Shown here piece by piece: positions 18,687 to 57,773 of a stretch of DNA of 64,000 nt (position 1 is the first letter of the stretch; every line of letters starts with the position of its first letter). The stretch spans positions 1 through 64,000 of IMG/VR virus record IMGVR_UViG_3300028832_000128. One strand, written 5' to 3'. The notes under the pieces are model-generated. The model saw only the letters and a list, made by a program, of their open reading frames with translations, ran no database searches and was not told where the DNA came from. Origin of the DNA: a virus. Taxonomy: Duplodnaviria > Caudoviricetes. The position numbers and the translations under genes are program-made.

Positions 18687-18722
18687 TTTTTTCTGTCTCC
18701 TTATTTTTTAAAATTTTTGCAA

Positions 18723-18740
18723 ATTATCAATATTGATAAT
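18723..18740. promoter_or_regulatory. Isolated copy of the replication iteron palindrome
   Basis: attatcaatattgataat, same as iterons in the rep gene; also at 55859..55876. Confidence 0.7.
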
Positions 18741-19248
18741 CCGCCCGGCTTGAAAAAAAATTTTCAAAATCTACAACTAATAAAAAGCTTTTAATTTCTT
18801 AAAAAACTTTGCTTATCATTTTTGATAATTCTTCGCCATCTGTTTGATTCGAACAAACATCGCCATCTGTCTAAATCTATTATTTAATAGACTTAAAGTC
18901 GTTGGAATTTTAACCATTTAAACTAAGACAGCAGTAAATTTATATCATCAATGATAAATCTTTTAAATTTTCCGTGTTTCCGTCAGCCAAATTCAATTTT
19001 AAACAATAATTCTGTCTGTCTAAAATCGTTTTGTAAAAAACTCTCTGTATGGCTGACATTTTTAAAAGGAGAGCGGCTGTCAGGACCTACCCCCAACCGT
19101 GTCCGGACATCGAATCTTATATTATGTTAAGTTCGACCGCCTTTTTCCTTATTTTCTCGTCGATAAATTTGCTTTGTTTTACTTGTTTGTTTGTCTGCTT
19201 TGGCTTGCCCGGTTGCTTGTTTGTTTGGTTATCTGATCCAAACGCCTA

Positions 19249-19277
19249 TTGACATTTTAATACTTATCATGTAAAAT
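19249..19277 (+). promoter_or_regulatory. Sigma70-type promoter antisense to the late operon
   Basis: TTGACA-17-TAAAAT; conserved at 56392..56420. Confidence 0.7.
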
Positions 19278-19426
19278 ACATATATGCACGATAAATATAT
19301 TATTTATCACTTACCTACGCAGTTTAAAACAAGTCTAAAAAGGTCAAATTTTTCCCTTTAATTTCAACACGATAAAAACGGCTCATATTCCGATAACTCA
19401 CGTTATGTTAAGTTGCCAAAGACCAC

Positions 19427-20038
19427 CTAATTCATTAAATTTGATTGATTTTTCAATATATTTTTAATTAAAACTTTTGTAACTTTTGAATTATCTTCAG
19501 TTTTTTCGTTATTTTTTTCAAAATTAGCACTCTCAAAACTGCTTGAATTTTCAATACTTTTTGCATTTTTTGATTTTCCGTCAGTTAAAAGATCCAAAAT
19601 TTCAGTTCTTGAAGTCATTTTTACGGTCTCGGTTCTTGAAGTAACTCCACCGGAAAGCAATTGTATCTTATCTACTGCTATAGCCATCGCCATAGCTAAT
19701 TGACTTAATGACGCTTTTTCTCTCTTCTTTTTAAGCCCCATTTCCGTCAATATCTCTTGCGTTATTTCTTGCAGATTTTCGACGGTCTTTGTAGCCCAAT
19801 TCTTTGTTGTAGCAAGGACGGTATCTCGAATTTCCTTTTTTACCTGTCCTATTCTCTCCCCAAAGAGCCTGTTTATCTTAGTTATTGTATCAGGCGACAC
19901 TTTGTGTTTTTTTGCAATTTTGTCGTGCGAAACAAGCCCTATGCAAAGGTCAGAAACTATTGCATTGACTGTTGTTTCAGGGAGATTAATTTTTTCTAAA
20001 TTTTCAGTATTTTCCATATTATTTTTTATGCACGACAA
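19427..20038 (-). CDS. Putative terminase small subunit (HTH); start may be 20017
   Basis: N-terminal HTH (HDKIAKKHKVSPDTI) and helical oligomerisation-like segment; first gene of late region. Confidence 0.5.
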   Translation of the reverse strand: MSCIKNNMENTENLEKINLPETTVNAIVSDLCIGLVSHDKIAKKHKVSPDTITKINRLFGERIGQVKKEIRDTVLATTKNWATKTVENLQEITQEILTEMGLKKKREKASLSQLAMAMAIAVDKIQLLSGGVTSRTETVKMTSRTEILDLLTDGKSKNAKSIENSSSFESANFEKNNEKTEDNSKVTKVLIKNILKNQSNLMN

Positions 20039-20110
20039 CCTAATATTTTTAACTTCTAAAATCTTAATTTTATAGACGATAAAATCATTATACCGGTATC
20101 AAATACGGTA

Positions 20111-20455
20111 TTATTTAATTTCGCAAAGTAAAGCATATATCCGCCGTTCGCTTACACCTATCAACTTATGTATTTTTCGACGACCGTAACCAAGTTGAAA
20201 ATGTAAAAAAATAACAAATCTTTCAATTTTGGTATATCGTCCTAAAGCGGTTATCTTTGCTTTTTTTTCAAATTTCAAATAGCTGTTATATTCTGTTGAT
20301 CTTAATTTGCTTTTATAATTAACGGATATTTTCCGTTCTACATATTTTCGTCTAACAAACTTGTAAAACTTTTCATCCGGAATCAATTTTATCTTTGGAG
20401 CTTTGCTTTTATATTCGTCTATATCAAACAACAAATTTTGTCTTTTTCTCGTCAT
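20111..20455 (-). CDS. Sigma70 region-4-like HTH protein, candidate late regulator
   Basis: ERFVIFLHFQLGYGRRKIHKLIGVSERRI; position between replication and late genes. Confidence 0.6.
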   Translation of the reverse strand: MTRKRQNLLFDIDEYKSKAPKIKLIPDEKFYKFVRRKYVERKISVNYKSKLRSTEYNSYLKFEKKAKITALGRYTKIERFVIFLHFQLGYGRRKIHKLIGVSERRIYALLCEIK

Positions 20456-20460
20456 AAAAT

Positions 20461-20505
20461 AAAAAAGACGGCAATAAACAGAGTTTAACTCTGCTTATTA
20501 CCGTC
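20461..20505 (-). terminator. Intrinsic terminator upstream of late regulator
   Basis: 17-bp stem gacggtaataagcagag / ctctgtttattgccgtc then U6. Confidence 0.85.
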
Positions 20506-20593
20506 CATATTTGTTAAATTATTATAACTGCAAATAAAAAAAGCCAAAGAAAAAAATGTCCTTCTTACCCATTTTTTATCTTTCGCCGATTTG

Positions 20594-20622
20594 ATTTTAA
20601 TATATTTTAAAAAAAATGTCAA
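20594..20622 (-). promoter_or_regulatory. Sigma70-type promoter
   Basis: TTGACA-17-TAAAAT. Confidence 0.75.
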
Positions 20623-20630
20623 CATATTTT

Positions 20631-21803
20631 TTACCTATGCACGATAATTTTTAAAACTTGCACAAGTCTCGTAAGTTCTTGTTTCCAATTTTTTTTATAT
20701 TCGTCTATATGTTTAAGTGCTTCAAATTGTCCGTATTTACTTTTTAAATCTGCCATCATTACATTAAAATTCACAGTCTTATATACTATATCTTGTGTTT
20801 TGTTTTCTTTAATATCTATATGTTGTGTTTGTTCTTTTTGTTTTTCTTGTTCTTTTCTCTTATTTACTGCTGCAACACAAATTTGATTACAGGATGTTTC
20901 TAATACTTCCAACGAAAATTTATTATATTGCCAAGCAGATTTATTCGTCGCAAGTTTAAAAAATTCTTTAATAATATAAGCCGCTTTAAGTTCTCCATAA
21001 GTTGTAAATATTCTGTTCATTATGCTCATATCTTTTTTAAAATTACATTTAAATTGATTATTAAATTCGGACTGAAACAACATACACCAATAACCTAAAA
21101 GTCTTTTACTTGCGTTATCAGAATTGATTAATGATTTTTTGTTATTAATATCTTCGATATTAATTTTAATATTATTTATATATATATTATTATAAAAACT
21201 TTTTTTTGTAATTTCGTATTCATTCAAATTTGCATTGATTTTTGAATTGATTTCTTGTTTATTATCAATATTGATAATTTCCTTATTTTGTTGTAAATTA
21301 TTATTGATTTTTAAGTCGTTTTTTGAATTTTCAAGCGTGTTATCAATATTGATAATTTGTTCTTTTTTTTCTTCGTTATTTAAATTGTTATCAATATTGA
21401 TAATTTTAACATCCTTTTTTTCTTGGTTATCGTCTATCTTTAAGCTATTTTTTTGATTTTTATTTGAATTTTCAACCGCATTATCAATATTGATAATTTG
21501 TTGCCACTTTTTCGTATTTTTTACAACCGTAAAATAGTTTTTTTTGCCTACTTTTTCTTTTATTATTATTCCCATATTCTGTAGGTTTTTTAAGCCTCTT
21601 AAAACATTTGTAACGCCTAATCCGGTAAGTTCCACAAACTCGATGTTTTCTATGCAATTTTTATTCATACCGTAGCCGTAAGTCTTAGCCAATATTACAT
21701 ATAACACCTGATGTGTTTCTCCTGCGATCCTAAGCCCTGCTAATCTTTCCCATATTTCAACATCGATTAAACCTTTTCTTTTATTTTCAAATAAATCATC
21801 CAT
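20631..21803 (-). CDS. Replication initiator, lambda O-like
   Basis: N-terminal VLYVILAKTYGY...FVELTGL winged HTH; internal iterons; followed in operon order by helicase neighbour. Confidence 0.8.
   Translation of the reverse strand: MDDLFENKRKGLIDVEIWERLAGLRIAGETHQVLYVILAKTYGYGMNKNCIENIEFVELTGLGVTNVLRGLKNLQNMGIIIKEKVGKKNYFTVVKNTKKWQQIINIDNAVENSNKNQKNSLKIDDNQEKKDVKIINIDNNLNNEEKKEQIINIDNTLENSKNDLKINNNLQQNKEIINIDNKQEINSKINANLNEYEITKKSFYNNIYINNIKINIEDINNKKSLINSDNASKRLLGYWCMLFQSEFNNQFKCNFKKDMSIMNRIFTTYGELKAAYIIKEFFKLATNKSAWQYNKFSLEVLETSCNQICVAAVNKRKEQEKQKEQTQHIDIKENKTQDIVYKTVNFNVMMADLKSKYGQFEALKHIDEYKKNWKQELTRLVQVLKIIVHR
21261..21496. repeat. Replication origin: four palindromic iterons inside rep
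   Basis: ttatcaatattgataa at 21262, 21340, 21388, 21481 (IINIDN repeats) beside an AT-rich tract. Confidence 0.8.
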
Positions 21804-23142
21804 ATTGCTCGTTCTCCTTATTAAAAAATTTAGTTTGCGTTGCTTCGAATATTAAATCTATATCGCCACACGCACCGTTACGGTTTTTTCCTATTCGTAT
21901 TTTGGCGTTTCTTTGCACCGTATCGTCGTTCGGTTTATAATATCCCTCACGCCACACAAACAAAACAACATCTGCGTCTTGTTCAATCGCTCCGGAATCT
22001 CTTAAATCACTTAACACCGGAATAGAGTTTTTTACTCCCCTTTGTTCAGGAGCTCTTGAAAGCTGGCTTAAAACAATAACAGGCACATCCAAATCCCTTG
22101 CCAAACTTTTTAATTGCCTCGAAATATCAGCTATTTGGTTGTTTTTATCTTTAATACTACTATCTCCTCTTAAAAGCTGTAAATAATCAATTACAATCAA
22201 ATCTAAATGCTTTCCTTTGGTTTTTAATTTATTTGCACAATTTCGGCTCTTGCTTCGAATATCAAAAGCCGTAGAATCGGCACTGTCGTCAATTAAAATA
22301 TTCATACTTCCTAACGATTGAGCTGCATTAGATAATTCAGCCCATTCATTATCTGCAATATTTGCGTATTTCAGTTTACTTGCACTCATACCGCTTACGG
22401 ATGATAACAACCTTTGTATTAATAACTTACGGCTCATTTCTAAACTAAACACCGCAACCGCTTTACCTGATGTAGCCACATTTTCGGCAATATTCAACGC
22501 AAAAGCGGTCTTTCCCATGGACGGACGCCCTGCAATAATTATCAGTTCTCCGTTTTGAAATCCGCCAATCCTTTTGTCTAAGTCGACAAATCCGCTTGCA
22601 AGCCCCGGCACAGCGGACCTGTTGCTATGCAAATATTCGATGTTTTGCACCGCCGAAACAATATCTTTATAAATCTCCGTCAAACTATTATCTTTAACGT
22701 TTTCACTTGCAACGGCAAATAATTCTTGTTGTGCATTATCTAATATTTCTTTTGCAGTTTTGGTTTGTTCTGATACATCGTTTGCAATTTGCATTGCCGC
22801 TTTCAAAGTTGCTCTCAATATGCTTTTTTCTCGCACAATATCGATATAACTTCTATATCCCGCCGTAGTTTGGACGTTATTAATTAAATTAGTAAGCCAA
22901 ACCGGACCGCCTTTTTCGGCGTAAATTTTATTGCTTTTTAATTCGTTGTTTACCGTAACAAGATCGACACTTTGCCCGTTTGTCCATAGTTTTTTACATA
23001 CATTAAATATGTCTGCGTGTATTCCCATATAAAAATCATTTTCGTTTAATCTCGAGCAAATTTCGCCGATAGTATCGGAATTTATAACCATACAAGCTAC
23101 TATAGCTCGTTCAGCGTTTAAATCTTGAGGAAATTCTTTCAT
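21796..23142 (-). CDS. dnaB: DnaB-like replicative helicase
   Basis: AGRPSMGKT, IDYLQL, LSQLSR, DLRDSGAIEQDAD, KNRNG. Confidence 0.95.
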   Translation of the reverse strand: MKEFPQDLNAERAIVACMVINSDTIGEICSRLNENDFYMGIHADIFNVCKKLWTNGQSVDLVTVNNELKSNKIYAEKGGPVWLTNLINNVQTTAGYRSYIDIVREKSILRATLKAAMQIANDVSEQTKTAKEILDNAQQELFAVASENVKDNSLTEIYKDIVSAVQNIEYLHSNRSAVPGLASGFVDLDKRIGGFQNGELIIIAGRPSMGKTAFALNIAENVATSGKAVAVFSLEMSRKLLIQRLLSSVSGMSASKLKYANIADNEWAELSNAAQSLGSMNILIDDSADSTAFDIRSKSRNCANKLKTKGKHLDLIVIDYLQLLRGDSSIKDKNNQIADISRQLKSLARDLDVPVIVLSQLSRAPEQRGVKNSIPVLSDLRDSGAIEQDADVVLFVWREGYYKPNDDTVQRNAKIRIGKNRNGACGDIDLIFEATQTKFFNKENEQYG

Positions 23143-23151
23143 TTTGCACCC

Positions 23152-23349
23152 TTAAAATAATTTCATTTGTTTGTTTTCTCGTTGCTGCAAATCTTCATAA
23201 TCTTTTAAAATCTCTTCGAATATTGCAACTTGTCTGTCTGCCTGAGTTTGTGTCATTCTTTTAGCTAAAACCAAATTAGGATATACTTTTTTTCTAAATC
23301 CCAACTCTCTTTTTATTGCCTGAATTTTATCTCTTGTTGTTATCGACAT
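23152..23349 (-). CDS. Hypothetical early protein
   Basis: Packed in early operon; identical translation in B. Confidence 0.7.
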   Translation of the reverse strand: MSITTRDKIQAIKRELGFRKKVYPNLVLAKRMTQTQADRQVAIFEEILKDYEDLQQRENKQMKLF

Positions 23350-23608
23350 CCGCTCTCTCCTTTTTCTTAAAATGTTTCATTACTCTGTTTATTGTTTCTT
23401 GTGATATTTCTTGAATATCATCCATGCAAAGCCAAAACTCTCTATTTAAAATTTTAAAATTCAAATCCCATGGAAACATTAAATTACAAATTAATAAATC
23501 ATCGTCGGTTTTGCGACATCCATCTTCACAGCCGTGTGTTTTTCTGTATTCCTTGCAGACCACTAATAATTCTTTCCTGCTAAACTCAACAACTATCTTG
23601 TCGTCCAT
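23327..23608 (-). CDS. Hypothetical early protein
   Basis: Packed in early operon. Confidence 0.6.
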   Translation of the reverse strand: MDDKIVVEFSRKELLVVCKEYRKTHGCEDGCRKTDDDLLICNLMFPWDLNFKILNREFWLCMDDIQEISQETINRVMKHFKKKERADVDNNKR

Positions 23609-23891
23609 TTAATTGTTTCCTTTGTAAAAATTTAACAAACAGATCTTTTTTCTTTTTTAATTGTTTTTCGAGTTCTCTTATTTCTCGTTTCATTTTTTCA
23701 ATTTCGCTTTCCGGATCCATTACACTCCACACATGTTCTTTTCTTTCTCCCATATACACCGCTATCATTTCAGCACAATCAAACTTGTCCATTGTTCTAA
23801 AATCAAGTATTATTTGTCTGCAAACATCTCTAAATTGCTCTTCGTCTTTTTCGTAATGATATTTAATTAATCTAAGTATTGTATTAATCAT
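23586..23891 (-). CDS. Hypothetical early protein
   Basis: Packed in early operon with RBS. Confidence 0.65.
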   Translation of the reverse strand: MINTILRLIKYHYEKDEEQFRDVCRQIILDFRTMDKFDCAEMIAVYMGERKEHVWSVMDPESEIEKMKREIRELEKQLKKKKDLFVKFLQRKQLNGRQDSC

Positions 23892-24056
23892 TTATTCGTC
23901 CTCTTTTTTCAGTGCGAAAAAAATCTGCAAAGTATGTCCTCTTCCTACACTAACCACAACCTGTCTGTTGTCTTTATGAATTACTTTCTGTATTATCCAT
24001 TTTTTTCCATCGACTTCTTCTATTACTCTACCTACTTTGTAATCACTAATTTTCAT
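23892..24056 (-). CDS. Small hypothetical protein (54 aa, below ORF-track cutoff)
   Basis: MKISDYKVGRVIEEVDGKKWIIQKVIHK...KKEDE; fills the gap exactly. Confidence 0.65.
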   Translation of the reverse strand: MKISDYKVGRVIEEVDGKKWIIQKVIHKDNRQVVVSVGRGHTLQIFFALKKEDE

Positions 24057-24057
24057 A

Positions 24058-24378
24058 TCAGCTATTTTCATTATTTATTCCCTCTTTGTCGCCAAATTTT
24101 GTTTTTATAAATTCAATTAAAAAATCTATTTCAGATATACAATGCCGCAACATTCTTACATGTTCTGTTTCTTCATGCATAAAATCACGTTCAAAATGCA
24201 AATGCGGATAAAATATCTCTTTGTTTTTTTTAGCAATTTTTTCCCGTTCTTTTTCTTCTTTTTTTCTTCTGTCTTCTTCTTGTAATGCTTTTGCTACATA
24301 CTCCGCATGCAATTTTTCGATTCTGTTTTTTAAAAATTTTTTTCTATTTTCCAATTCTTTTAATGTTATATAACGCAT
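24058..24378 (-). CDS. Hypothetical early protein
   Basis: Packed in early operon. Confidence 0.65.
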   Translation of the reverse strand: MRYITLKELENRKKFLKNRIEKLHAEYVAKALQEEDRRKKEEKEREKIAKKNKEIFYPHLHFERDFMHEETEHVRMLRHCISEIDFLIEFIKTKFGDKEGINNENS

Positions 24379-24382
24379 ATAT

Positions 24383-24640
24383 TTAACCCTTTTTCTTTTT
24401 TATTCTGTTTATGAATTTCTTTAAGCCGATTCTTGCACCTTTTAACGTTTTGTAACAATAGTCGTTGTAAAACACTCGTCTAAAGTCGTCTAAATAATAA
24501 ATAAATACAGTATTCCCTATTAATTCTCCTCTAACAACACGAATTGTGATTTTATCTATTGTCAGTTTATCGCCTAACCAATGTGTAACATAGACGGTAT
24601 CTCCCTGTTTAAATTTGCTTTTTACCTGAAATTTACTCAT
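24383..24640 (-). CDS. Hypothetical early protein
   Basis: Packed in early operon. Confidence 0.65.
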   Translation of the reverse strand: MSKFQVKSKFKQGDTVYVTHWLGDKLTIDKITIRVVRGELIGNTVFIYYLDDFRRVFYNDYCYKTLKGARIGLKKFINRIKKKKG

Positions 24641-24941
24641 TTTTTAATACCTTAAATTCAATATCAAAAACTTTTCCGTTATACTTTAAATCCGTATCTT
24701 TACCGTCAATAATTCTTGCTCTTTTTATAATCGCTTTTATTATTTTTTCTTTGTCGTTTTTCTTAGGATAACCTAAAGTAAAAACAATGTTAGGATTAGG
24801 CGGAATATATACATAAGTTCCCAAGTTTAAATGCTTATATATTCTATTAATCCAATATTTATTCCAAATCCTATATTCGTGTGTTTTCTCTCCGGATTTT
24901 ACCTTTTCAAACCACTCTTTCTTTAGATGAAACATTAACAT
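24633..24941 (-). CDS. ASCH-domain protein
   Basis: LKKEWFEKVKSGEKTHEYR motif; start moved to ATG after aggag. Confidence 0.8.
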   Translation of the reverse strand: MLMFHLKKEWFEKVKSGEKTHEYRIWNKYWINRIYKHLNLGTYVYIPPNPNIVFTLGYPKKNDKEKIIKAIIKRARIIDGKDTDLKYNGKVFDIEFKVLKNE

Positions 24942-25326
24942 TGTTTTGCTCCTGCGTTTCAAATTTTTTATATTCTCTAATAAAAACAGTTAATGCAATA
25001 AAAAAATCTCCTATAACTGACACTTCTTCGGATGAAAAATTAAATTCTCTTTCACATAAATTAATCAATCCGAATCCAGTGTTATTTGTTATTCTAATTA
25101 TCATTAAATAAGTTTTCCCTTTGTTCCAAAGAGTGTTTCTGACTTCAAGAAAAACATTTATTCTATCGTTTTGAAAAATATATTCTCGTTTTGATAAGAT
25201 TTCTCTGTTTCTTGACTCTATTTCTTTATAAATATTGTTTTTATCTATACATTTAAAGTTTAATTGTTTAAACAAACGACATATTATGTCTATTTCGATT
25301 TCTATCATTTCAGAAAAATCCCTCAT
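24907..25326 (-). CDS. Hypothetical early protein
   Basis: Start moved to ATG after aaggag (MRDFSE). Confidence 0.6.
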   Translation of the reverse strand: MRDFSEMIEIEIDIICRLFKQLNFKCIDKNNIYKEIESRNREILSKREYIFQNDRINVFLEVRNTLWNKGKTYLMIIRITNNTGFGLINLCEREFNFSSEEVSVIGDFFIALTVFIREYKKFETQEQNNVNVSSKERVV

Positions 25327-25345
25327 TCTTTGTTCTCCTTGCGTT

Positions 25346-25858
25346 TTAACAAACTTGTAAATTATATTTTCCGTATTTTTTAACAAAGTCTATATACTTA
25401 AAACTTCCGTCTATTTGTTGGTTTTTTATTTCAGTCTCTGTTGAATAATCGCAGTCGACATATAAATGACAACCGGATTCGTTTTTGTATTTAGCTAAAT
25501 TAAGTTTTTTGTGCCAATAATCAAAATGTTGTCTATCTGATAAAACAAGTAGTTTAAAATCTTTTTTATCACAATTTAAGTTCGAACCGAACTTAATACA
25601 TTCATCTAAATTTTTACATCTTCGAATATAAACTTTCCAACCGTCATCAAAATGGACTCCGAAAGGGTTAGAAAAACTCGCTCCTTCTAAAGGTTTTAAA
25701 CATTCTTTGCCTAATAAAAAATAAAGATGATCTAAAAGATTATCCTCTGTTTCAAAAACAGGATAACTTGTAGTTTTGTATAAGCTTTTAAAGATTGCTA
25801 AATATAAAGGTTTTTTATATTCTTTACAGAAAAAACGTCTAATCCAAAATGGAACCAT
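25346..25858 (-). CDS. Hypothetical early protein
   Basis: 170 aa, start overlaps upstream stop. Confidence 0.6.
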   Translation of the reverse strand: MVPFWIRRFFCKEYKKPLYLAIFKSLYKTTSYPVFETEDNLLDHLYFLLGKECLKPLEGASFSNPFGVHFDDGWKVYIRRCKNLDECIKFGSNLNCDKKDFKLLVLSDRQHFDYWHKKLNLAKYKNESGCHLYVDCDYSTETEIKNQQIDGSFKYIDFVKKYGKYNLQVC

Positions 25859-26112
25859 TATTTTGTCTCCTTAAAATAAACATATTTACCGTCTTTCCTT
25901 GCGAACGCTCCGCATGGCACCGCAGGACAATGAAACCTATTCAGGTTAAAAAAACACTTCTTACACTGCTCTTTAATACTGCTTTCAATTACTTCCAATT
26001 TAAATTTTCTAACGCCGTAATTACCATCTTCCCATTGATAAAATACAGGTAACTCCACAACTTCAACTACCATCTTCCTAAATGTATCCTTGTTTTTAAT
26101 TCGTTTCTCCAA
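25858..26112 (-). CDS. Hypothetical Cys-containing early protein
   Basis: CKKC...C...C pattern. Confidence 0.6.
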   Translation of the reverse strand: MEKRIKNKDTFRKMVVEVVELPVFYQWEDGNYGVRKFKLEVIESSIKEQCKKCFFNLNRFHCPAVPCGAFARKDGKYVYFKETK

Positions 26113-26264
26113 TAGCCGATCCGGTAATCATTAATCACGGAATTAACCACAAATAAAATCATAAATACTTTAAAATACCATGCACAACTTAAACTACATA
26201 CAAACCAAACCAACGCTGCCGGAATTAAAATTGTTCTTACTACAGCCCAAATCATTCTAAACAT
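26067..26264 (-). CDS. Small membrane protein
   Basis: Two hydrophobic segments. Confidence 0.55.
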   Translation of the reverse strand: MFRMIWAVVRTILIPAALVWFVCSLSCAWYFKVFMILFVVNSVINDYRIGYWRNELKTRIHLGRW

Positions 26265-26583
26265 GTTTTTCTTCTCCTTGATATTTTTTTATTACGTCTA
26301 ATTTTGCTTTTGCAATATCAAAATCAAACTGATATGTTCCTACTACGTAACCCATACCACCGGCGTTGCTCATACCTACGCCGATTTTTTCAGTTTTGTT
26401 TTTTGTGTATTGCAAATAAGCGTTATAAAGCTCTGTATTACCTTTTATTTTTTGAGTAACAATATAATTGCGGATAATCATACCGTCTAAATACGGAGTT
26501 CTTTTGATTTTTGTTTTGTGATAAGTAAACCTTAACACTCTCTCCAATAATTTCCCTACCTTATCAACCTGATAACCCTTCAT
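26257..26583 (-). CDS. Hypothetical early protein
   Basis: ATGA-coupled to upstream gene. Confidence 0.65.
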   Translation of the reverse strand: MKGYQVDKVGKLLERVLRFTYHKTKIKRTPYLDGMIIRNYIVTQKIKGNTELYNAYLQYTKNKTEKIGVGMSNAGGMGYVVGTYQFDFDIAKAKLDVIKKYQGEEKHV

Positions 26584-26789
26584 TTGTCCAGCTCCTTTTT
26601 AATTTTATTTAAACTCCAATATTTACAACCGTTTCCGAATTTTTTACCTGCAATTCCCCAAATCTTCATACGATGATAAACTCCGTCTCTATCTTTTAAA
26701 CCGAAAAATTGTCTCAAAAACTCCGCATTTACATATTTGTCGCCAAAAAGCTCCTTAACATCGGGCTTAATTTCATTTACTACTTGCAT
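26580..26789 (-). CDS. Excisionase-like winged-HTH protein
   Basis: YVNAEFLRQFFGL...VYHRMK...KYWSL pattern; first gene of early operon. Confidence 0.55.
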   Translation of the reverse strand: MQVVNEIKPDVKELFGDKYVNAEFLRQFFGLKDRDGVYHRMKIWGIAGKKFGNGCKYWSLNKIKKELDK

Positions 26790-26851
26790 ACAACCCCCTT
26801 AAAACCTTTTACAACCGTTGCAAAAACTACACAAAACGGCTATAATTAATA

Positions 26852-26943
26852 AAAGGCTGTAGGATATGGGTAAGATAACCTACAGCCGGCTCATAGCTCT
26901 CTTTTGGCGAAAGATACAACAATATTATTGTTGTCGCTATGAT
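26852..26943 (-). ncRNA. Candidate C4/CI-like antisense RNA in early leader
   Basis: Nested stems (tcatagc/gctatga, acaacaat/attgttgt, ggctgtagg/cctacagcc) exposing segments complementary to two promoter leaders. Confidence 0.6.
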
Positions 26944-27014
26944 TTTTTATAAAAGTTTGTTGTGATAAGAAAAAAAGATTTTTACCCATTTTTTTACCTT
27001 TCGCCAATTTTTTG

Positions 27015-27054
27015 TTTTGATTTGATTGTAAAACTTTTGATTTGATTGTAAAAC
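27015..27054. promoter_or_regulatory. Tandem 20-bp operator-like repeat
   Basis: ttttgatttgattgtaaaac twice, overlapping the early promoter -10. Confidence 0.7.
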
Positions 27055-27073
27055 TTTTTTAAAAGTTTGTCAA
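27045..27073 (-). promoter_or_regulatory. Early lytic promoter (PR-like)
   Basis: TTGACA-17-TACAAT divergent from repressor. Confidence 0.8.
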
Positions 27074-27089
27074 GTATTTTTTTAAAAGA

Positions 27090-27449
27090 ATGAAAATAAC
27101 TAATTTAAAAAACAAAATTAAACATTTATTATTAGAGCAAGGTTTAAGTCAGAGCGACCTTGCAAAAAAGATTGGTGTGCATAGACAAGTTTTAACAAAT
27201 TGGCTAAGCGGAACAAGGAATCCTAAAATAGAAAATTTAGAAAAGATAGCAAAGGCACTAAATATATCTGTAGAGGATTTATTGAATGATAATAAAAATT
27301 TTTCAGACGTCCAAATCAATATTAACTCCAAAGGCAAAGTAAATCAGACAATCCAAAAACAAGATCTAAAAGACAAGGAGATTGAATTGCTTAAAAAAGA
27401 GATTGAATTGCTTAAAAAAGAATTAGAATTAAGGAGAAAACAAAAATGA
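27090..27449 (+). CDS. XRE-family HTH repressor (CI-like)
   Basis: LSQSDLAKKIGVHRQVLTNWLSGTRNPKIENLEKIAKAL. Confidence 0.9.
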   Translation: MKITNLKNKIKHLLLEQGLSQSDLAKKIGVHRQVLTNWLSGTRNPKIENLEKIAKALNISVEDLLNDNKNFSDVQININSKGKVNQTIQKQDLKDKEIELLKKEIELLKKELELRRKQK

Positions 27450-27703
27450 AAAAAATTCTATTATGCTGTTTGTTTTTGATGATACCAGCGTTATGTTTGG
27501 CGGATCAATATGTAAATGGTTATTATCGTAAAGATGGAACTTATGTAAATGGTTATTATAGGTCGTCTCCAAATAACACGTCAAGAGATAATTACTCTTA
27601 TAAAGATAACTATAATCCCTATACAGGAGAAACAGGATCGAATTATTACAGAAACGACAGAACATCAGAATATTACAACGGTTACGGTCAAGATAGAAGA
27701 TAA
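27446..27703 (+). CDS. Secreted accessory protein
   Basis: Signal peptide then YVNGYYRKDGTYV...NPYTG motif common in prophage accessory genes. Confidence 0.75.
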   Translation: MKKILLCCLFLMIPALCLADQYVNGYYRKDGTYVNGYYRSSPNNTSRDNYSYKDNYNPYTGETGSNYYRNDRTSEYYNGYGQDRR

Positions 27704-27705
27704 AA

Positions 27706-27909
27706 ATGCGAACAACAATAATTATTATTTTGGCTTTTGTTATAGGTTTTCTTGTCGGTCAAGCAACACATATCTATACTTTTAACAACAGGGGAGATAT
27801 TAGATTAAATACTATAACCGGAGATATTACAACTGTAGGAGATCTTCTAAGATCGAACTCTAAAAATAATAATCGATTAAATTTATCCGGATTAAATTTG
27901 GAAAAATAA
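27706..27909 (+). CDS. Small membrane-anchored accessory protein
   Basis: N-terminal TM; ends LSGLNLEK; packed between neighbours. Confidence 0.7.
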   Translation: MRTTIIIILAFVIGFLVGQATHIYTFNNRGDIRLNTITGDITTVGDLLRSNSKNNNRLNLSGLNLEK

Positions 27910-27911
27910 CA

Positions 27912-29015
27912 ATGCAAGAATTAGAAGAAAGAAACGGTAAATTCAGTTTTAGATACTTCGATGTTGACGGTCATTTTCGTCGTCATACTTGCGTTAGTTT
28001 ATTAAAAAGAGAAGCCGAGCTTGAGCAGGCACAATTTTTATTGGATCTAAAAAAATCAAAAGCAGATTATAACGGTAAATATAATATCGATTCTCTTTTA
28101 TGGTCTCATTTTTGTCAACTTTATTACAACAATTATGTAATACCGAACGAAATCGAACCATCAGCGGTTAAAACAGTAATAAAACAAATCGATGAAATTT
28201 TACATATAAAATATTTAAAAGAATTAGATAACGAAAATATAAATCGTTTTATTGCGGAACGCAGAAAAACAGTTGTTTCGTCCACAACAAACAGACAACT
28301 ACATGTAATTAAAAGCATGTGGACCTACGCTATTAATACTTTGGAGTTAAATATAAAAAGCCCGGCAAAACCTATAAAAGACGCTCCTGTAGAATTAATT
28401 AAAAATATAGAATTTTTTACAAACGATGAAAGAAAAAAAATATTAAACCAAATTCAACCGGCTCATATTAAAACAATATGCTGGCTTATGTTTAGTTTTG
28501 CTTTAAGAATTAAAGAAGCTGTGTCGGTTCAATGGCAGGATATTAATTTTAAAACAGGTAAAATTTTTATATATCCGTTCAAAACAAAACGCACGGATCC
28601 AAACAGAATATCGCTTACCATGCCAACCGATTTTATTGCTTATATAAAAAAATTACCACGTAAATCAGATTTTATATGCGGTAAAGATTATACAAGCAAA
28701 AATGCACGCTCGGTTATTTCAAAACAAATAAAAAAACGATTTATAGAGATTATAGGCAAAGGCAGGTCTCACATGTGCAGACACACTTTTGTCAGTCATG
28801 CAATAAATAATCCGGAAATAAAAGATAGGGATATAATGAAAGTAGCAAGGATAAAAAATCCTAAAGTATTAGAGATTTATGCTCACTACACAAAGGAAAG
28901 AGAACAAACCATAGCAAATAATATATACAACATACATCAAATCACGCCTCAGGAAATCGATAAAAAGATAAAAGAATTGCTTGAATTAAAGAGTAAATTA
29001 ACCAAATCTAAATAA
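27912..29015 (+). CDS. int: Tyrosine integrase
   Basis: Catalytic pattern ALRIKE, KTK, HMCRHTF, IYAHY; N-terminal arm-binding-like domain; beside att. Confidence 0.93.
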   Translation: MQELEERNGKFSFRYFDVDGHFRRHTCVSLLKREAELEQAQFLLDLKKSKADYNGKYNIDSLLWSHFCQLYYNNYVIPNEIEPSAVKTVIKQIDEILHIKYLKELDNENINRFIAERRKTVVSSTTNRQLHVIKSMWTYAINTLELNIKSPAKPIKDAPVELIKNIEFFTNDERKKILNQIQPAHIKTICWLMFSFALRIKEAVSVQWQDINFKTGKIFIYPFKTKRTDPNRISLTMPTDFIAYIKKLPRKSDFICGKDYTSKNARSVISKQIKKRFIEIIGKGRSHMCRHTFVSHAINNPEIKDRDIMKVARIKNPKVLEIYAHYTKEREQTIANNIYNIHQITPQEIDKKIKELLELKSKLTKSK

Positions 29016-29019
29016 TAAA

Positions 29020-29219
29020 TTTACCCAAATTTTACCCATATAGACGAGAGATATTACCTTGAGAGGGCGATGTCCTAAACCGCTAGACGATGGCAGCAGT
29101 TCCACTCTTTTAATACTGTTTTACACGACTTTTTATTGATTTTTGAATAAATTTCAACCTTTTTCAACCTTTCCAAACCTTTCCAAAACGTTATAAAATT
29201 TACCCAAATTTTACCCAAA
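29020..29219. repeat. att arm elements: paired TTTACCCA(A/T)A repeats each side of core, plus three AACCT repeats at 10-bp period
   Basis: 29020, 29031, 29199, 29210; aacct at 29156, 29166, 29176. Confidence 0.65.
29057..29097 (-). tRNA. 5' half of tRNA-Glu(CTC), att core at A/B junction
   Basis: GCTGCCA-TC-GTCT-AGCGGTTT-AGGAC-A-TCGCC-CTCTCAA-GG, then no 3' half. Confidence 0.88.
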
Positions 29220-29247
29220 TTAAATATCTTTAACTACCACAAAAAAT

Positions 29248-46783: not shown

Positions 46784-46963
46784 TTCGTTTTATTTCCTGT
46801 TTTTTTATCTTTTTTTACACTTCTTATAGTGTTTATATCTTTCAGAGTTTTCTATTCGTTAAAAACGAAATACTAACCCTGCCTTTTGTTGTCTTATTTT
46901 CACCAAGTGGTGCGGATTATACAAACAATAGAAAATATTTTTACTCCAAGTTTTTAAGATATT

Positions 46964-55425: not shown

Positions 55426-55501
55426 CGCTTTCTGTAGGATTCGAACCTACACTCCCAAATACACCGGTTCTTTGGTGTTCTTCCGTCTAAACTAAGAAAG
55501 C
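55426..55501 (-). tRNA. tRNA-like element with non-canonical anticodon arm (B only)
   Basis: GCTTTCT/AGAAAGC acceptor, GTAGG-TTCGAAT-CCTAC T arm, D arm with GG; CCAAA/TTTGG stem encloses 11 nt. Confidence 0.55.
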
Positions 55502-57648: not shown

Positions 57649-57773
57649 CATATTTGTTAAATTATTATAACTGCAAATAAAAAAAGCCAAAGAAAAAAAT
57701 GTCCTTCTTACCCATTTTTTATCTTTCGCCGATTTGATTTTAATATATTTTAAAAAAAATGTCAACATATTTT

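Follow-up and report, generated by a model that had tools for sequence, protein, structure and literature searches.

A leader-encoded antisense RNA candidate with two-part targets at two promoters in prophages assigned to rumen Elusimicrobia

Prophages assigned to rumen Elusimicrobia carry, in the leader of their early operon, a structured RNA whose two short recognition segments are complementary to the start of that leader and to a second two-part site at a promoter 6.4 kb away. These pairings co-vary between phage variants, which argues for a real RNA control layer, and on this comparison of related sequences we conclude that the pairing is real. The DNA analyzed (the window) comprises positions 1-64,000 of IMGVR_UViG_3300028832_000128, the whole contig being 75.6 kb, and the relatives used for comparison were drawn from rumen metagenomes and one Elusimicrobia metagenome-assembled genome (MAG). 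The segments, called a and b in the targets and a' and b' in the RNA, are the following.

27007-26995, minus strand: a1, first half of the nearby target, TTGGCGAAAGGTA
26989-26982, minus strand: b1, second half of the nearby target, ATGGGTAA, carrying the ATG of the early leader open reading frame (ORF)
26916-26904, minus strand: a', TATCTTTCGCCAA, complementary to a1 and a2
26875-26866, minus strand: b', TCTTACCCAT, complementary to b1 and b2
20587-20577, minus strand: a2, distant target, GGCGAAAGATA
20572-20563, minus strand: b2, distant target, ATGGGTAAGA
57706-57730, minus strand: a2/b2 of the second tandem phage unit, identical to the first, with the same promoter, leader, and terminator

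An earlier note on this DNA had described the first six segments on the minus strand, and all of them are present in the sequence at these positions. The pairing lengths it gave also hold: a1:a' forms 13 bp including one G-U pair, b1:b' 8 bp, a2:a' 11 bp, and b2:b' 10 bp. The variable position of a' is a U that lies opposite G in a1 and opposite A in a2. The nearby target precedes a' by 66-91 nt and shares its strand and promoter, and the two halves of a target are separated by 5-6 nt, compared with 28 nt between a' and b'. In both leaders a is rich in purines and resembles a Shine-Dalgarno sequence, and b contains the ATG of a leader ORF (early or late); a1 includes a Shine-Dalgarno-like AAAGG 7 nt upstream of the ATG. 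When the contig was sampled at random 4000 times, adjacent segments shared a complementary run of at least 13 in 53 samples, some of these falling on real hairpins. In the 75.6-kb contig the combined a and b pattern was found only at the expected sites. Pairing by chance is thus unlikely, and the doubt left over is removed by covariation in the relatives.

Covariation of a with a' and b with b' in related phages had been proposed as a check on the claim that a structured RNA from the early leader pairs with a nearby and a distant two-part target. It was found in four specificity types at the nearby site and in three at the distant one, and this compensatory change supports the claim; a, a', b, and b' change together from type to type. 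The window type is GGCGAAAGG/ATGGGTAA. The type represented by L010 and L011 has the same a as the window, with b1 ATGCTTG facing b' CAAGCAT. In L005 and L012, a1 is CGGTCAAGGT with a' ACCTTGACCG, and b1 is ATGGTTAG with b' CTAACCAT; in L008, L009, and the MAG, a1 is TGGCGAGGA with a' TCCTCGCCA, and b1 is TGAGTGA with b' TCACTCA. Consequently, b1 and b' covary in all four types, and a1 and a' in the latter two. The distant site is known in three types, and in each its a2 and b2 track the type's own a' and b'. For example, the second promoter region of L011 is nearly identical to that of the window except that b2 is ATGCTTGG, fitting its own b' CCAAGCAT, and the MAG has a2 GGCGAGGA and b2 GAGTGAGA, both of which fit the a' and b' of the MAG itself. 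Each of the three complete sets has a b' that matches nucleotides present in b2 and absent from b1. Together with the U of a' that pairs with both G and A, this indicates that the structured RNA has itself been fitted to the distant site. When duplex energies were compared in a 4 x 7 matrix, the cognate duplex was the strongest in each row and column. A further variant, L034, carries a modular re-assortment of a and b, and its late leader implies a predicted sRNA partner with a' UCUUUCGCC and b' UCUCACUCAU. The repressor proteins also vary between specificity types.

Searches beyond these relatives returned little. Positions 26780-27100 had no blastn match among phage records, the first early protein (69 aa) and DnaB had no close protein relatives among viral contigs, and a scan of viral contigs with a pattern of the invariant blocks found no match. 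The exact a and b pattern matched viral contigs four times, in one unrelated sequence with no a' or b' nearby, and we judged these matches irrelevant. Among sequencing runs, no RNA run was listed as containing the stretch, and three runs presumed to be RNA yielded only contig pieces of relatives.

The RNA itself folds into four helices.

26943-26851 (approximate), minus strand: sRNA gene, about 95 nt, from fold and covariation
26941-26936 with 26897-26892, minus strand: P1, 6 bp, enclosing P2 and P2b only
26934-26928 with 26922-26916, minus strand: P2
26914-26910 with 26904-26900, minus strand: P2b, loop CGCCA
26887-26879 with 26863-26855, minus strand: P3, terminator hairpin of 9 bp, with a TTTT tail at 26854-26851

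The a' segment makes up the 5' strand and loop of the small hairpin P2b, with its CGCC core in the loop. As the earlier note had described, b' lies in the loop of a U-tailed hairpin: P3 has a 15-nt loop on its 9-bp stem, is followed by TTTT, and stands apart from the part enclosed by P1. The fold scores z = -6.2 relative to shuffles, single-sequence folds agree across all four specificity types, and RNAalifold recovers P1, P2, P2b, and P3, which compensatory changes also support. In the alignment 88% of cells are paired and 8 pairs show compensatory change, which none of 500 shuffles matched. These counts understate the pairing because the MAFFT/CM alignment shifts L005 and L012 by one column in P2 and P3, and those helices were checked by eye. 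G-U pairs that exist only in the minus sense occur in P3 of L005, in P2 of the E-type, and in a1:a'; on the plus strand they would be A-C mismatches. The U tail and the target transcripts likewise belong to the minus strand. In the L010/L011 type the U tail of P3 is poor (CCUAUUAAUU). A second, identical copy of the RNA is found at contig positions 63995-64153, just beyond the end of the window.

On the early side, the RNA is surrounded by the following elements.

27045-27073, minus strand: early promoter P_E, TTGACA-17-TACAAT, the best sigma-70 match in 20300-27500
26891-26989, minus strand: early leader ORF, 32 codons plus TGA, MGKNLFF..., starting in b1
26818-26846, plus strand: convergent promoter P_as, TTGCAA-17-TATAAT, 10/12 match, adjoining P3 and facing the repressor gene
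26580-26789, minus strand: first early gene, 69 aa, no family, with a strong AAGGGGG ribosome-binding site
27090-27449, plus strand: gene for a CI-like HTH repressor, 119 aa, with HTH_3 and a coiled-coil tail, from Pfam and PHROG matches
27912-29015: integrase gene, which follows small ORFs beyond the repressor gene

The early leader ORF spans P1, P2, and a', and its stop codon lies 3 nt ahead of the 5' arm of P3. Despite indels, the stop falls between 3 nt before and at most 5 nt inside that arm in 7 of 8 variants, a count that includes the distant homologues L017, L018, and L032; in L005 an A run that differs by one base shortens the ORF. P_as keeps its -35 and -10 elements around a variable spacer in 8 of 8 variants, again including the distant ones. 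A transcript from P_as would open with the mirror image of P3 and run antisense across the entire sRNA and leader. The leader ORF stop at the foot of P3, the placement of a' in a hairpin of its own, and the conserved convergent promoter are features newly added by this analysis. The P_E spacer holds an 18-bp palindrome, and two 21-bp direct repeats follow downstream; these are probably operators, and the repeats of the P_E region are specific to each specificity type. The repressor has no peptidase domain. Read-through of P3 would express the 69-aa early gene, after which come DnaB and an O-like replication protein.

The distant target has a comparable setting.

20594-20622, minus strand: second promoter, TTGACA-17-TAAAAT, 11/12 match, heading the late operon
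20522-20572, minus strand: late leader ORF, 16 codons, MGKKDIFFFGFFYLQL plus stop, initiating within b2
20456-20506, minus strand: strong intrinsic terminator with an 18-19 bp stem and a T run

The top two sigma-70 matches in 20300-27500 (27073-27045 and 20622-20594) are each directly upstream of an a/b pair. The distant pair, 6.4 kb from the sRNA, comes just after the second promoter at the 5' end of a late transcript that covers genes for SSB, endolysin, major head protein, DGR, large terminase, and portal. Here a2 is predicted to lie in the stem of a 5' hairpin and b2 in its loop. The start codon is inside b2 in four variants (ATG, ATG, GTG, and ATG), and the sequence of the leader peptide is not conserved across variants; in the MAG type the spacing between the a2 Shine-Dalgarno and the start is long (12 nt). 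Thus, as the earlier note had proposed, b holds the AUG of an MGK leader peptide in both targets (MGKNLFF... and MGKKDIFFF...), ahead of a terminator-like hairpin. The late terminator sits between the leader and the first late gene (20111-20455). The late ORF stops 15-21 nt ahead of the terminator in three variants and only 5 nt ahead in L034, so it is not obvious that a ribosome would block this terminator. A search of the late leader for an alternative anti-terminator fold found none that was convincing. Action in trans on both tandem units, also suggested earlier, follows from the identity of their targets and RNA copies.

In the mechanism we propose, the leader-encoded sRNA of about 95 nt would end at the intrinsic terminator P3. 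A ribosome on the early leader ORF, stopping at the foot of P3, would prevent the hairpin and let polymerase enter the early genes; the sRNA bound to a1/b1 would block that ribosome, so that P3 forms and transcription ends. This pairing could take place in cis, once a' and b' have been transcribed, or in trans from an accumulated pool. Each stopped transcript would be a new sRNA molecule, and the loop would thereby keep itself off. The same sRNA would pair in trans with a2/b2 on the constitutive late transcript and hold the late operon behind its leader terminator, and termination at P3 would also shield the face-to-face repressor promoter from read-through. The sRNA would then add a layer of sequence-specific immunity to that of the HTH repressor, with a specificity that derives from a and b and can be re-assorted between phages. 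If the HTH repressor shuts P_E in the lysogen, no sRNA would be made there, so an immunity role needs leaky or partial activity of P_E. We infer that the sRNA accumulates, that the leader ORFs are translated, and that pairing lowers downstream expression, with repression, and hence immunity, as the presumed outcome. The account as a whole, in which the sRNA blocks leader translation and enforces termination at both the early and the late leader as a form of immunity, is one that we hold with moderate confidence.

The regulation could also have the opposite sign. An sRNA made after induction would open the 5' hairpin of the late leader, leading to read-through or to a stabilized transcript, and turn the late operon on. 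The operator-like repeats at P_E suggest that lytic growth may be the main phase of RNA production, the late promoter, a consensus sigma-70 site, would need some anti-termination signal, and a2 is sequestered in a hairpin that binding would open. IsrK, of the C4 clan, activates in this manner, through remodeling of its target (PMC4825925). However, the start codon of the late leader ORF lies in b2, where pairing should block translation, and no anti-terminator structure was found that opening the hairpin could release. In addition, the 3' end of the sRNA comes from termination at P3, and its yield should therefore peak in the attenuated state. For these reasons we regard activation as rather unlikely.

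The main regulator could instead be the countertranscript that starts at P_as and forms the 5' UTR of the repressor mRNA. It would act on the nascent early leader, as in pT181, pIP501, and pCF10 attenuation, and would reach the late leader by way of the stretch complementary to a1/b1; a' and b' would then serve chiefly to fold the RNA or to pair with that mRNA. This is consistent with the retention of P_as in 8 of 8 variants around a spacer that varies. It also suits the distant homologues L017, L018, and L032, where P_as persists together with the scaffold and the leader ORF, but convincing a/b complementarity to the leader of the same homologue was not seen. The complement of a1/b1 would, moreover, form a reasonably good duplex with a2/b2. 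At the positions where a1 and b1 differ from a2 and b2, however, a' and b' fit a2/b2 better than that complement does in all three complete sets, and the G-U pairs of the helices and of a1:a' become A-C mismatches on the plus strand. The countertranscript and the sRNA are not mutually exclusive as regulators; as the main one, the countertranscript seems to us distinctly unlikely. In genome G148, a scan for UUAUCUGCAAAUA targets, made to look for a trans target of the loop in the distant homologues, returned only its own copies and one site resembling coding sequence. The distant copies of the module are located before pilin-like genes.

A purely structural role in cis would make a1:a' a long-range helix and b1:b' a pseudoknot, the likeness of a2/b2 being a relic of paralogous promoter-leader units. 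The minimum-energy fold of the whole leader does pair a1 with a', the early and late promoter regions share sequence outside a and b (AATCAAATC), and a2 has an intramolecular partner of its own in the late leader. Yet b2 has no partner in cis, and in L011 it is b2 alone that has changed within a near-identical region, toward that phage's own b'. The match of b' to b2-specific nucleotides missing from b1 in three sets, and the modular re-assortment in L034, further argue against this explanation, which we consider very improbable. Finally, a and b as DNA operators for a bipartite protein, looped to the inverted copy downstream, would suit sites that occupy +1 to +25 at both promoters and recur in inverted form 90 bp away, as well as repressor proteins that vary by type, but that copy is embedded in RNA-covarying helices with b' exactly in the hairpin loop before the U tail, its segments are 28 nt apart rather than 5-6 nt, G-U is tolerated at the variable position of a1/a2, and a and b coincide with a ribosome-binding site and start codon, making this barely credible.

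The pairing sRNA that we favor invites comparison with C4 of phages P1 and P7 (clan CL00128), a small structured RNA made from the leader of the operon that it controls, which acts beside a protein repressor. The a2/b2 of C4 spans the initiation site of a small ORF (icd) whose translation is needed for downstream expression, and its specificity alleles correspond to different immunity types. The earlier note had held that a strong Rfam match would make the present RNA a known one. The whole window gave no match to RF01695 (C4) at the gathering score, and positions 26600-27200 gave none to the C4, c4-a1b1, and isrK models at E<=10, though an equal-size P1 control reached 68.8 bits against RF01695 (cut-off 45) and 51 bits against c4-a1b1 (RF03163). 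The RNA is thus not a known C4 member; with P1 matching and no C4-clan model matching here, it is to be seen as an analogue of C4 rather than a detectable homologue. One other candidate, the ES056 sRNA (RF02752), scored 27.2 bits against a cut-off of 43. The match falls on the hypervariable b' loop UUACCCAU, which differs in the other specificity types, and we read it as coincidence.

Like C4, the present RNA is encoded in a leader and uses two short segments, one in a hairpin loop, against a1/b1 and a2/b2; here, too, specificity differs between types, the second target covers the start of a small ORF, and an HTH repressor stands alongside. The build is different. C4 holds both elements inside one long closing stem and is tRNA-like, whereas b' here is in a separate 3' intrinsic terminator, and a' and b' follow each other in the opposite order. 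The ends of C4 are made by processing, with RNase P at the 5' end, while the 3' end here is a predicted intrinsic terminator. At 11-13 and 8-10 nt, the segments are longer than the 7 and 8 nt of P1. In C4, a2/b2 follows directly downstream, before the antirepressor; here it is 6.4 kb off, with its own promoter, and heads the late operon with its lysis, head, and packaging genes, and no homologue of ant or icd was seen. Rfam lists C4 for Proteobacteria and the phages that infect them (PMC2864571), whereas the host here belongs to the Elusimicrobia.

In satellite phage P4, the CI RNA comes from the early-operon leader and pairs with a site that lies upstream of it in that transcript, which brings about premature termination; the regulator itself derives from the terminated or processed transcript (PMC4825925, citing Sabbattini 1995 and Briani 2000). 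A regulator derived from the leader it controls, with a pairing site upstream of itself, is likewise present here. However, P4 uses one segment (seqB with seqA and seqC) and Rho-dependent termination, has both targets in the same leader, and involves no protein repressor, whereas the present system combines two segments with intrinsic terminators and leader ORFs, includes an HTH repressor, and has one of its targets at a separate promoter. IsrK of the prophage Gifsy-1 (RF01394), a relative in the C4 clan, is made by leader termination and acts in trans on a longer read-through transcript from its own locus, which it remodels and thereby activates (PMC4825925). It opens structure to activate translation through a single pairing region and is Hfq-dependent, in contrast to the two segments found here. 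Since IsrK activates rather than represses, the sign of regulation in the present case is not derivable from analogy.

Two further kinds of attenuation share individual elements. Face-to-face promoters, a leader intrinsic terminator that decides read-through, and loop-loop recognition recall countertranscript attenuation. In pT181, pIP501, pAMbeta1, and Anti-Q of pCF10, the regulator is a fully complementary RNA from the opposite strand, whereas the covarying segments here are on the targets' own strand and also serve a distant promoter. As in pyrBI attenuation, the leader ORF reaches the terminator, so that a closely following ribosome can prevent the hairpin. The signal in pyrBI is polymerase pausing at low UTP; the signal proposed here is an antisense RNA that would block initiation.

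To our knowledge, RNA-based phage immunity with a two-part address has hitherto been known from P1/P7, P4, and proteobacterial relatives, and the phage biology of Elusimicrobia is essentially unknown. The comparative sequence evidence makes a convincing case for a covariation-supported analogue of C4 and P4 CI in Elusimicrobia prophages, and the lack of detectable C4 homology together with the different build points to convergent evolution of the same logic. As a more speculative proposal, possible but short of probable in our view, these prophages may have evolved, independently of C4 and P4 CI, a self-reinforcing switch in which a terminator-born sRNA blocks the ribosome that opposes its own terminator, protects the repressor promoter, and locks the late operon through two re-assortable segments. 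The module (XRE repressor gene, convergent promoter, leader ORF ending at a terminator, and structured RNA) may, given its distant copies ahead of pilin-like genes, be a general control cassette of Elusimicrobia. It links an antisense RNA with leader-peptide attenuators at two separate promoters and with a convergent repressor promoter, a compact system that would lend itself to tests of the lysis-lysogeny decision. The natural specificity types, one differing in b only and one re-assorting a and b, provide a ready set of orthogonal RNA-target pairs and may allow rumen phages to be sorted into immunity groups by sequence alone.

The structured minus-strand RNA (about 95 nt, roughly 26943-26851) lies in the early leader of a rumen Elusimicrobia prophage and carries two segments, a' and b', complementary both to a nearby two-part target in its own leader (a1/b1) and to a distant one 6.4 kb away (a2/b2). 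The earlier note had placed all six segments correctly, as reading the minus strand directly confirmed.

Segments and neighboring features
27007-26995, minus strand: a1
26989-26982, minus strand: b1
26916-26904, minus strand: a'
26875-26866, minus strand: b', within the 15-nt loop of a 9-bp hairpin (26887-26879 with 26863-26855) followed by UUUU
20587-20577, minus strand: a2
20572-20563, minus strand: b2
57730-57706: second, identical a2/b2, within the window
63995-64153 of the 75,585-nt record (the window being its first 64,000): second, identical copy of the RNA
27090-27449, plus strand: HTH_3 repressor gene (119 aa), followed by small ORFs and an integrase
20506-20466 plus a T run: strong intrinsic terminator between the late leader and the first late gene

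Pairing of a1 with a' spans 13 bp, including one G-U, and that of b1 with b' 8 bp; for the distant target, the figures are 11 bp (a2:a') and 10 bp (b2:b'). The top two sigma-70 matches in 20300-27500, at 27073-27045 and 20622-20594, each have an a/b pair directly downstream. Complementary runs of at least 13 between neighboring segments are rare in the contig (53 of 4000 samples, some of them real hairpins), and the joint a and b pattern occurs in the contig at the expected places only. The RNA region has a much stronger fold than its shuffles (z = -6.2). We are highly confident that the two-site pairing is real.

The early operon, on the strand opposite to the repressor gene, encodes a 69-aa protein, DnaB, and an O-like replication protein, in that order. 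The second promoter is placed after the O-like gene and opens a long operon that includes SSB, endolysin, major head protein, a DGR, large terminase, and portal; it is therefore the late promoter. The first gene past the late terminator (20111-20455, minus strand; 114 aa) gives only a weak HTH_23 hint, starts inside the terminator T run, and has no visible ribosome-binding site. The 75.6-kb viral record consists of related phage units of ~37 kb each, at least two and a quarter of them, arranged head to tail; this is either a true tandem polylysogeny or an assembly joining strain variants. Depending on the segment, the units are 74% to 98% identical to one another, most closely in the immunity and early region (18714-29225 versus 55850-66369). 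Elsewhere, the Rfam motifs RT-17 and RT-18 scored above gathering at 46829-46917 (minus strand), adjoining a reverse-transcriptase region, and a tRNA model match of 51 bits at 55426-55501 (minus strand) has 11 nt in place of the 7-nt anticodon loop.

Phage records and viral contigs yielded no close relatives. Homology to the 69-aa protein pointed to loci L005-L010, which are rumen metagenome contigs, and a pattern scan with the invariant block behind the hairpin gave three further loci: L011 (14.5 kb), L012, and L013, a 146-kb contig of a sheep-rumen Elusimicrobia genome (the MAG; extended as L015). Their alignment resolved four specificity types.

Specificity types, named after members, with their P2b hairpins
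Window type: a1 GGCGAAAGG; a' CUUUCGCC; b1 AUGGGUAA; b' UUACCCAU; P2b UCUUU-CGCCA-AAAGA
L010/L011 type: a1 and a' as in the window; b1 AUGCUUG; b' CAAGCAU
L005/L012 type: a1 CGGUCAAGGU; a' ACCUUGACCG; b1 AUGGUUAG; b' CUAACCAU; P2b ACCU-UGACC-GGGU
L008/L009/MAG type: a1 UGGCGAGGA; a' UCCUCGCCA; b1 UGAGUGA; b' UCACUCA; P2b UCCU-CGCCA-AGGA

The covariation of a with a' and of b with b' that the earlier note proposed to seek in related phages was thus present in four types at the nearby site, and also in the three (window, L011, and MAG) with a distant site available for comparison. From its second promoter through leader and terminator, L011 is almost identical to the window but for b2, AUGCUUGG, which is perfectly complementary to the L011 b' (CCAAGCAU). 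Behind the homologous second promoter of the MAG stand GGCGAGGA and GAGUGAGA, complementary to the a' and b' of that same genome. Of all RNA-target combinations, the cognate ones had the strongest RNAduplex energies, and b alone discriminated the window and L011 types. The late leader of a further locus, L034 (150-400), combines a window-like a (GGCGAAAGA) with a MAG-like b (ATGAGTGAGA), so that the two address segments seem to be exchanged as separate modules. The leader ORF of L034 uses a different frame and ends 5 nt ahead of the terminator. L034 belongs to a relative of this phage, and directly before SSB in its late operon is a gene (2128-2550) matching the Acb2/Tad1-hairpin Pfam entry, an anti-defence sponge family. 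One relative's contig (run X18) matches from 26576 to 26932 and diverges beyond, a mosaic breakpoint within the RNA gene at helix P2, which fits recombinational exchange of the specificity region.

The partner of the distant site could also be a plus-strand RNA from the convergent promoter behind P3, the terminator hairpin, carrying the complement of a1/b1. This explains the data less well. In all three complete sets, b' fits nucleotides that are present in b2 and absent from b1 (GA in the window, G in L011, GA in the MAG). At the single a1/a2 difference (G in a1, A in a2), the U of a' pairs with both, whereas the complement of a1 would leave an A-C mismatch. G-U pairs occur in the minus sense only, in P3 of L005, the P2 closing pair of the MAG type, and a1:a'; no A-C pairs were seen. 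The structured minus-strand RNA is thus fitted to both sites.

A covariance model of this RNA, built from seven distinct sequences, had 88% of cells paired in its alignment and compensatory change at 8 pairs, values reached by none of 500 shuffles; slid controls dropped to 35-52%. RNAalifold independently recovered four helices (P1, P2, P2b, and P3), and single-sequence folds of all four types concur. Helix P1 (6 bp) has two compensatory pairs and P3 five. Since a' forms the 5' strand and loop of the small hairpin P2b and b' lies in the P3 loop, both recognition elements are displayed in loops. In each of the three types with a distant site, the late leader is predicted to fold into a 5' hairpin whose stem contains a2 and whose loop contains b2, which would suit a loop-loop first contact.

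Two features went unused in the earlier note: a leader ORF stopping at P3, and a conserved convergent promoter. Beginning within b1, the early leader ORF passes through P1, P2, and a'; its stop codon falls at the P3 foot, anywhere between 3 nt ahead of the 5' arm and 5 nt within it, in seven variants (window, L011, MAG, L012, and the distant homologues L017, L018, and L032 from other Elusimicrobia genomes). This position is kept despite indels and unrelated peptide sequences; the sole exception is L005, where the ORF is shortened by one base in an A run. By our own estimate, an open frame of ~30 codons in DNA this AT-rich has a chance of roughly 0.1. That such a frame recurs in some four independent lineages, with its end at the hairpin every time, is therefore not a matter of chance. 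A ribosome halted at this stop would cover the P3 5' arm. On the opposite strand directly behind P3, all eight variants carry TTGNNA-17-TA(T/C)AAT, with hexamers kept and spacer variable. It is directed at the repressor gene, ahead of which there are no other promoter-like sites, and its transcript would begin with the mirror image of P3, antisense to the RNA and leader.

These data show the structure, the covarying complementarities, and where promoters, ORFs, and terminators lie; we infer the remainder of the mechanism. Leader translation would keep P3 from forming, so that transcription could continue into the early genes. Once a'/b' paired with a1 (the ribosome-binding region) and b1 (the start codon), the ribosome would be blocked and transcription would end at P3. 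Every terminated transcript would join the RNA pool, making the attenuated state self-sustaining, and in this state the convergent repressor promoter would also be protected against read-through. In addition, the RNA would bind the constitutive late transcript at its 5' end and confine it to the region ahead of its terminator. A negative sign is argued mainly by two points: the termination that the RNA would promote is the very event that creates its 3' end, and start codons lie within b. Several points weaken the repressive model. The P3 U tail is poor in the L011 type, in three of four variants the late leader ORF ends 15-21 nt before the terminator, an alternative fold of the late leader was sought and not found, and IsrK, a C4-clan relative, is an activator (PMC4825925). 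On balance, we lean modestly toward the full repressive mechanism.

The finding is real, and the earlier reading of a C4/CI-like antisense RNA switch was essentially right. It had allowed that a strong Rfam C4 match would make the element a known one; the 601-nt phage P1 control matched C4 (68.8 bits), c4-a1b1 (51 bits), and isrK, while none of these was listed for 26600-27200 (E<=10) or matched in the whole window at gathering score. The best sub-threshold Rfam match was ES056, with 27 bits (cut-off 43). Because it depends on the loop UUACCCAU, the hypervariable b', we treated it as coincidence. Phage P1 is annotated, in order, with a promoter, a1, b1, the 77-nt C4 RNA, a2, b2, icd, and ant. 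Our element differs in having b' in a separate 3' terminator, a reversed a'/b' order, other segment lengths, its second target on another transcription unit, different controlled operons, and a host in Elusimicrobia, C4 being found in Proteobacteria and their phages (PMC2864571). It resembles P4 CI RNA in leader origin, upstream target, and a probable tie to termination (PMC4825925), but has neither a single segment nor Rho dependence, and a protein repressor is present. Face-to-face promoters recall countertranscript-driven attenuation, and traits of ribosome-mediated attenuation are combined as well. The element is a non-homologous analogue of C4/CI-type RNA immunity; its architecture is distinct, and it has two conserved features in addition.

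The covariance model was applied to 104 genomes from the same order and to a phylum-wide sample of 151; it matched the MAG and, weakly, three other genomes. Distant homologues of the scaffold, at 31-41 bits, are L017 (G148:C39), L018 (G148:C87), and L032 (G194:C236), each adjoining a divergent XRE-HTH gene; in two cases, the downstream gene is prepilin-like. They share the loop UUAUCUGCAAAUA, for which a search found no target. The scaffold, the leader ORF stopping at the P3 foot, and the convergent promoter behind P3 are all present in them, but clear a/b complementarity is not, which suggests that two-site addressing may be an elaboration, in one phage lineage, of a more general cassette.
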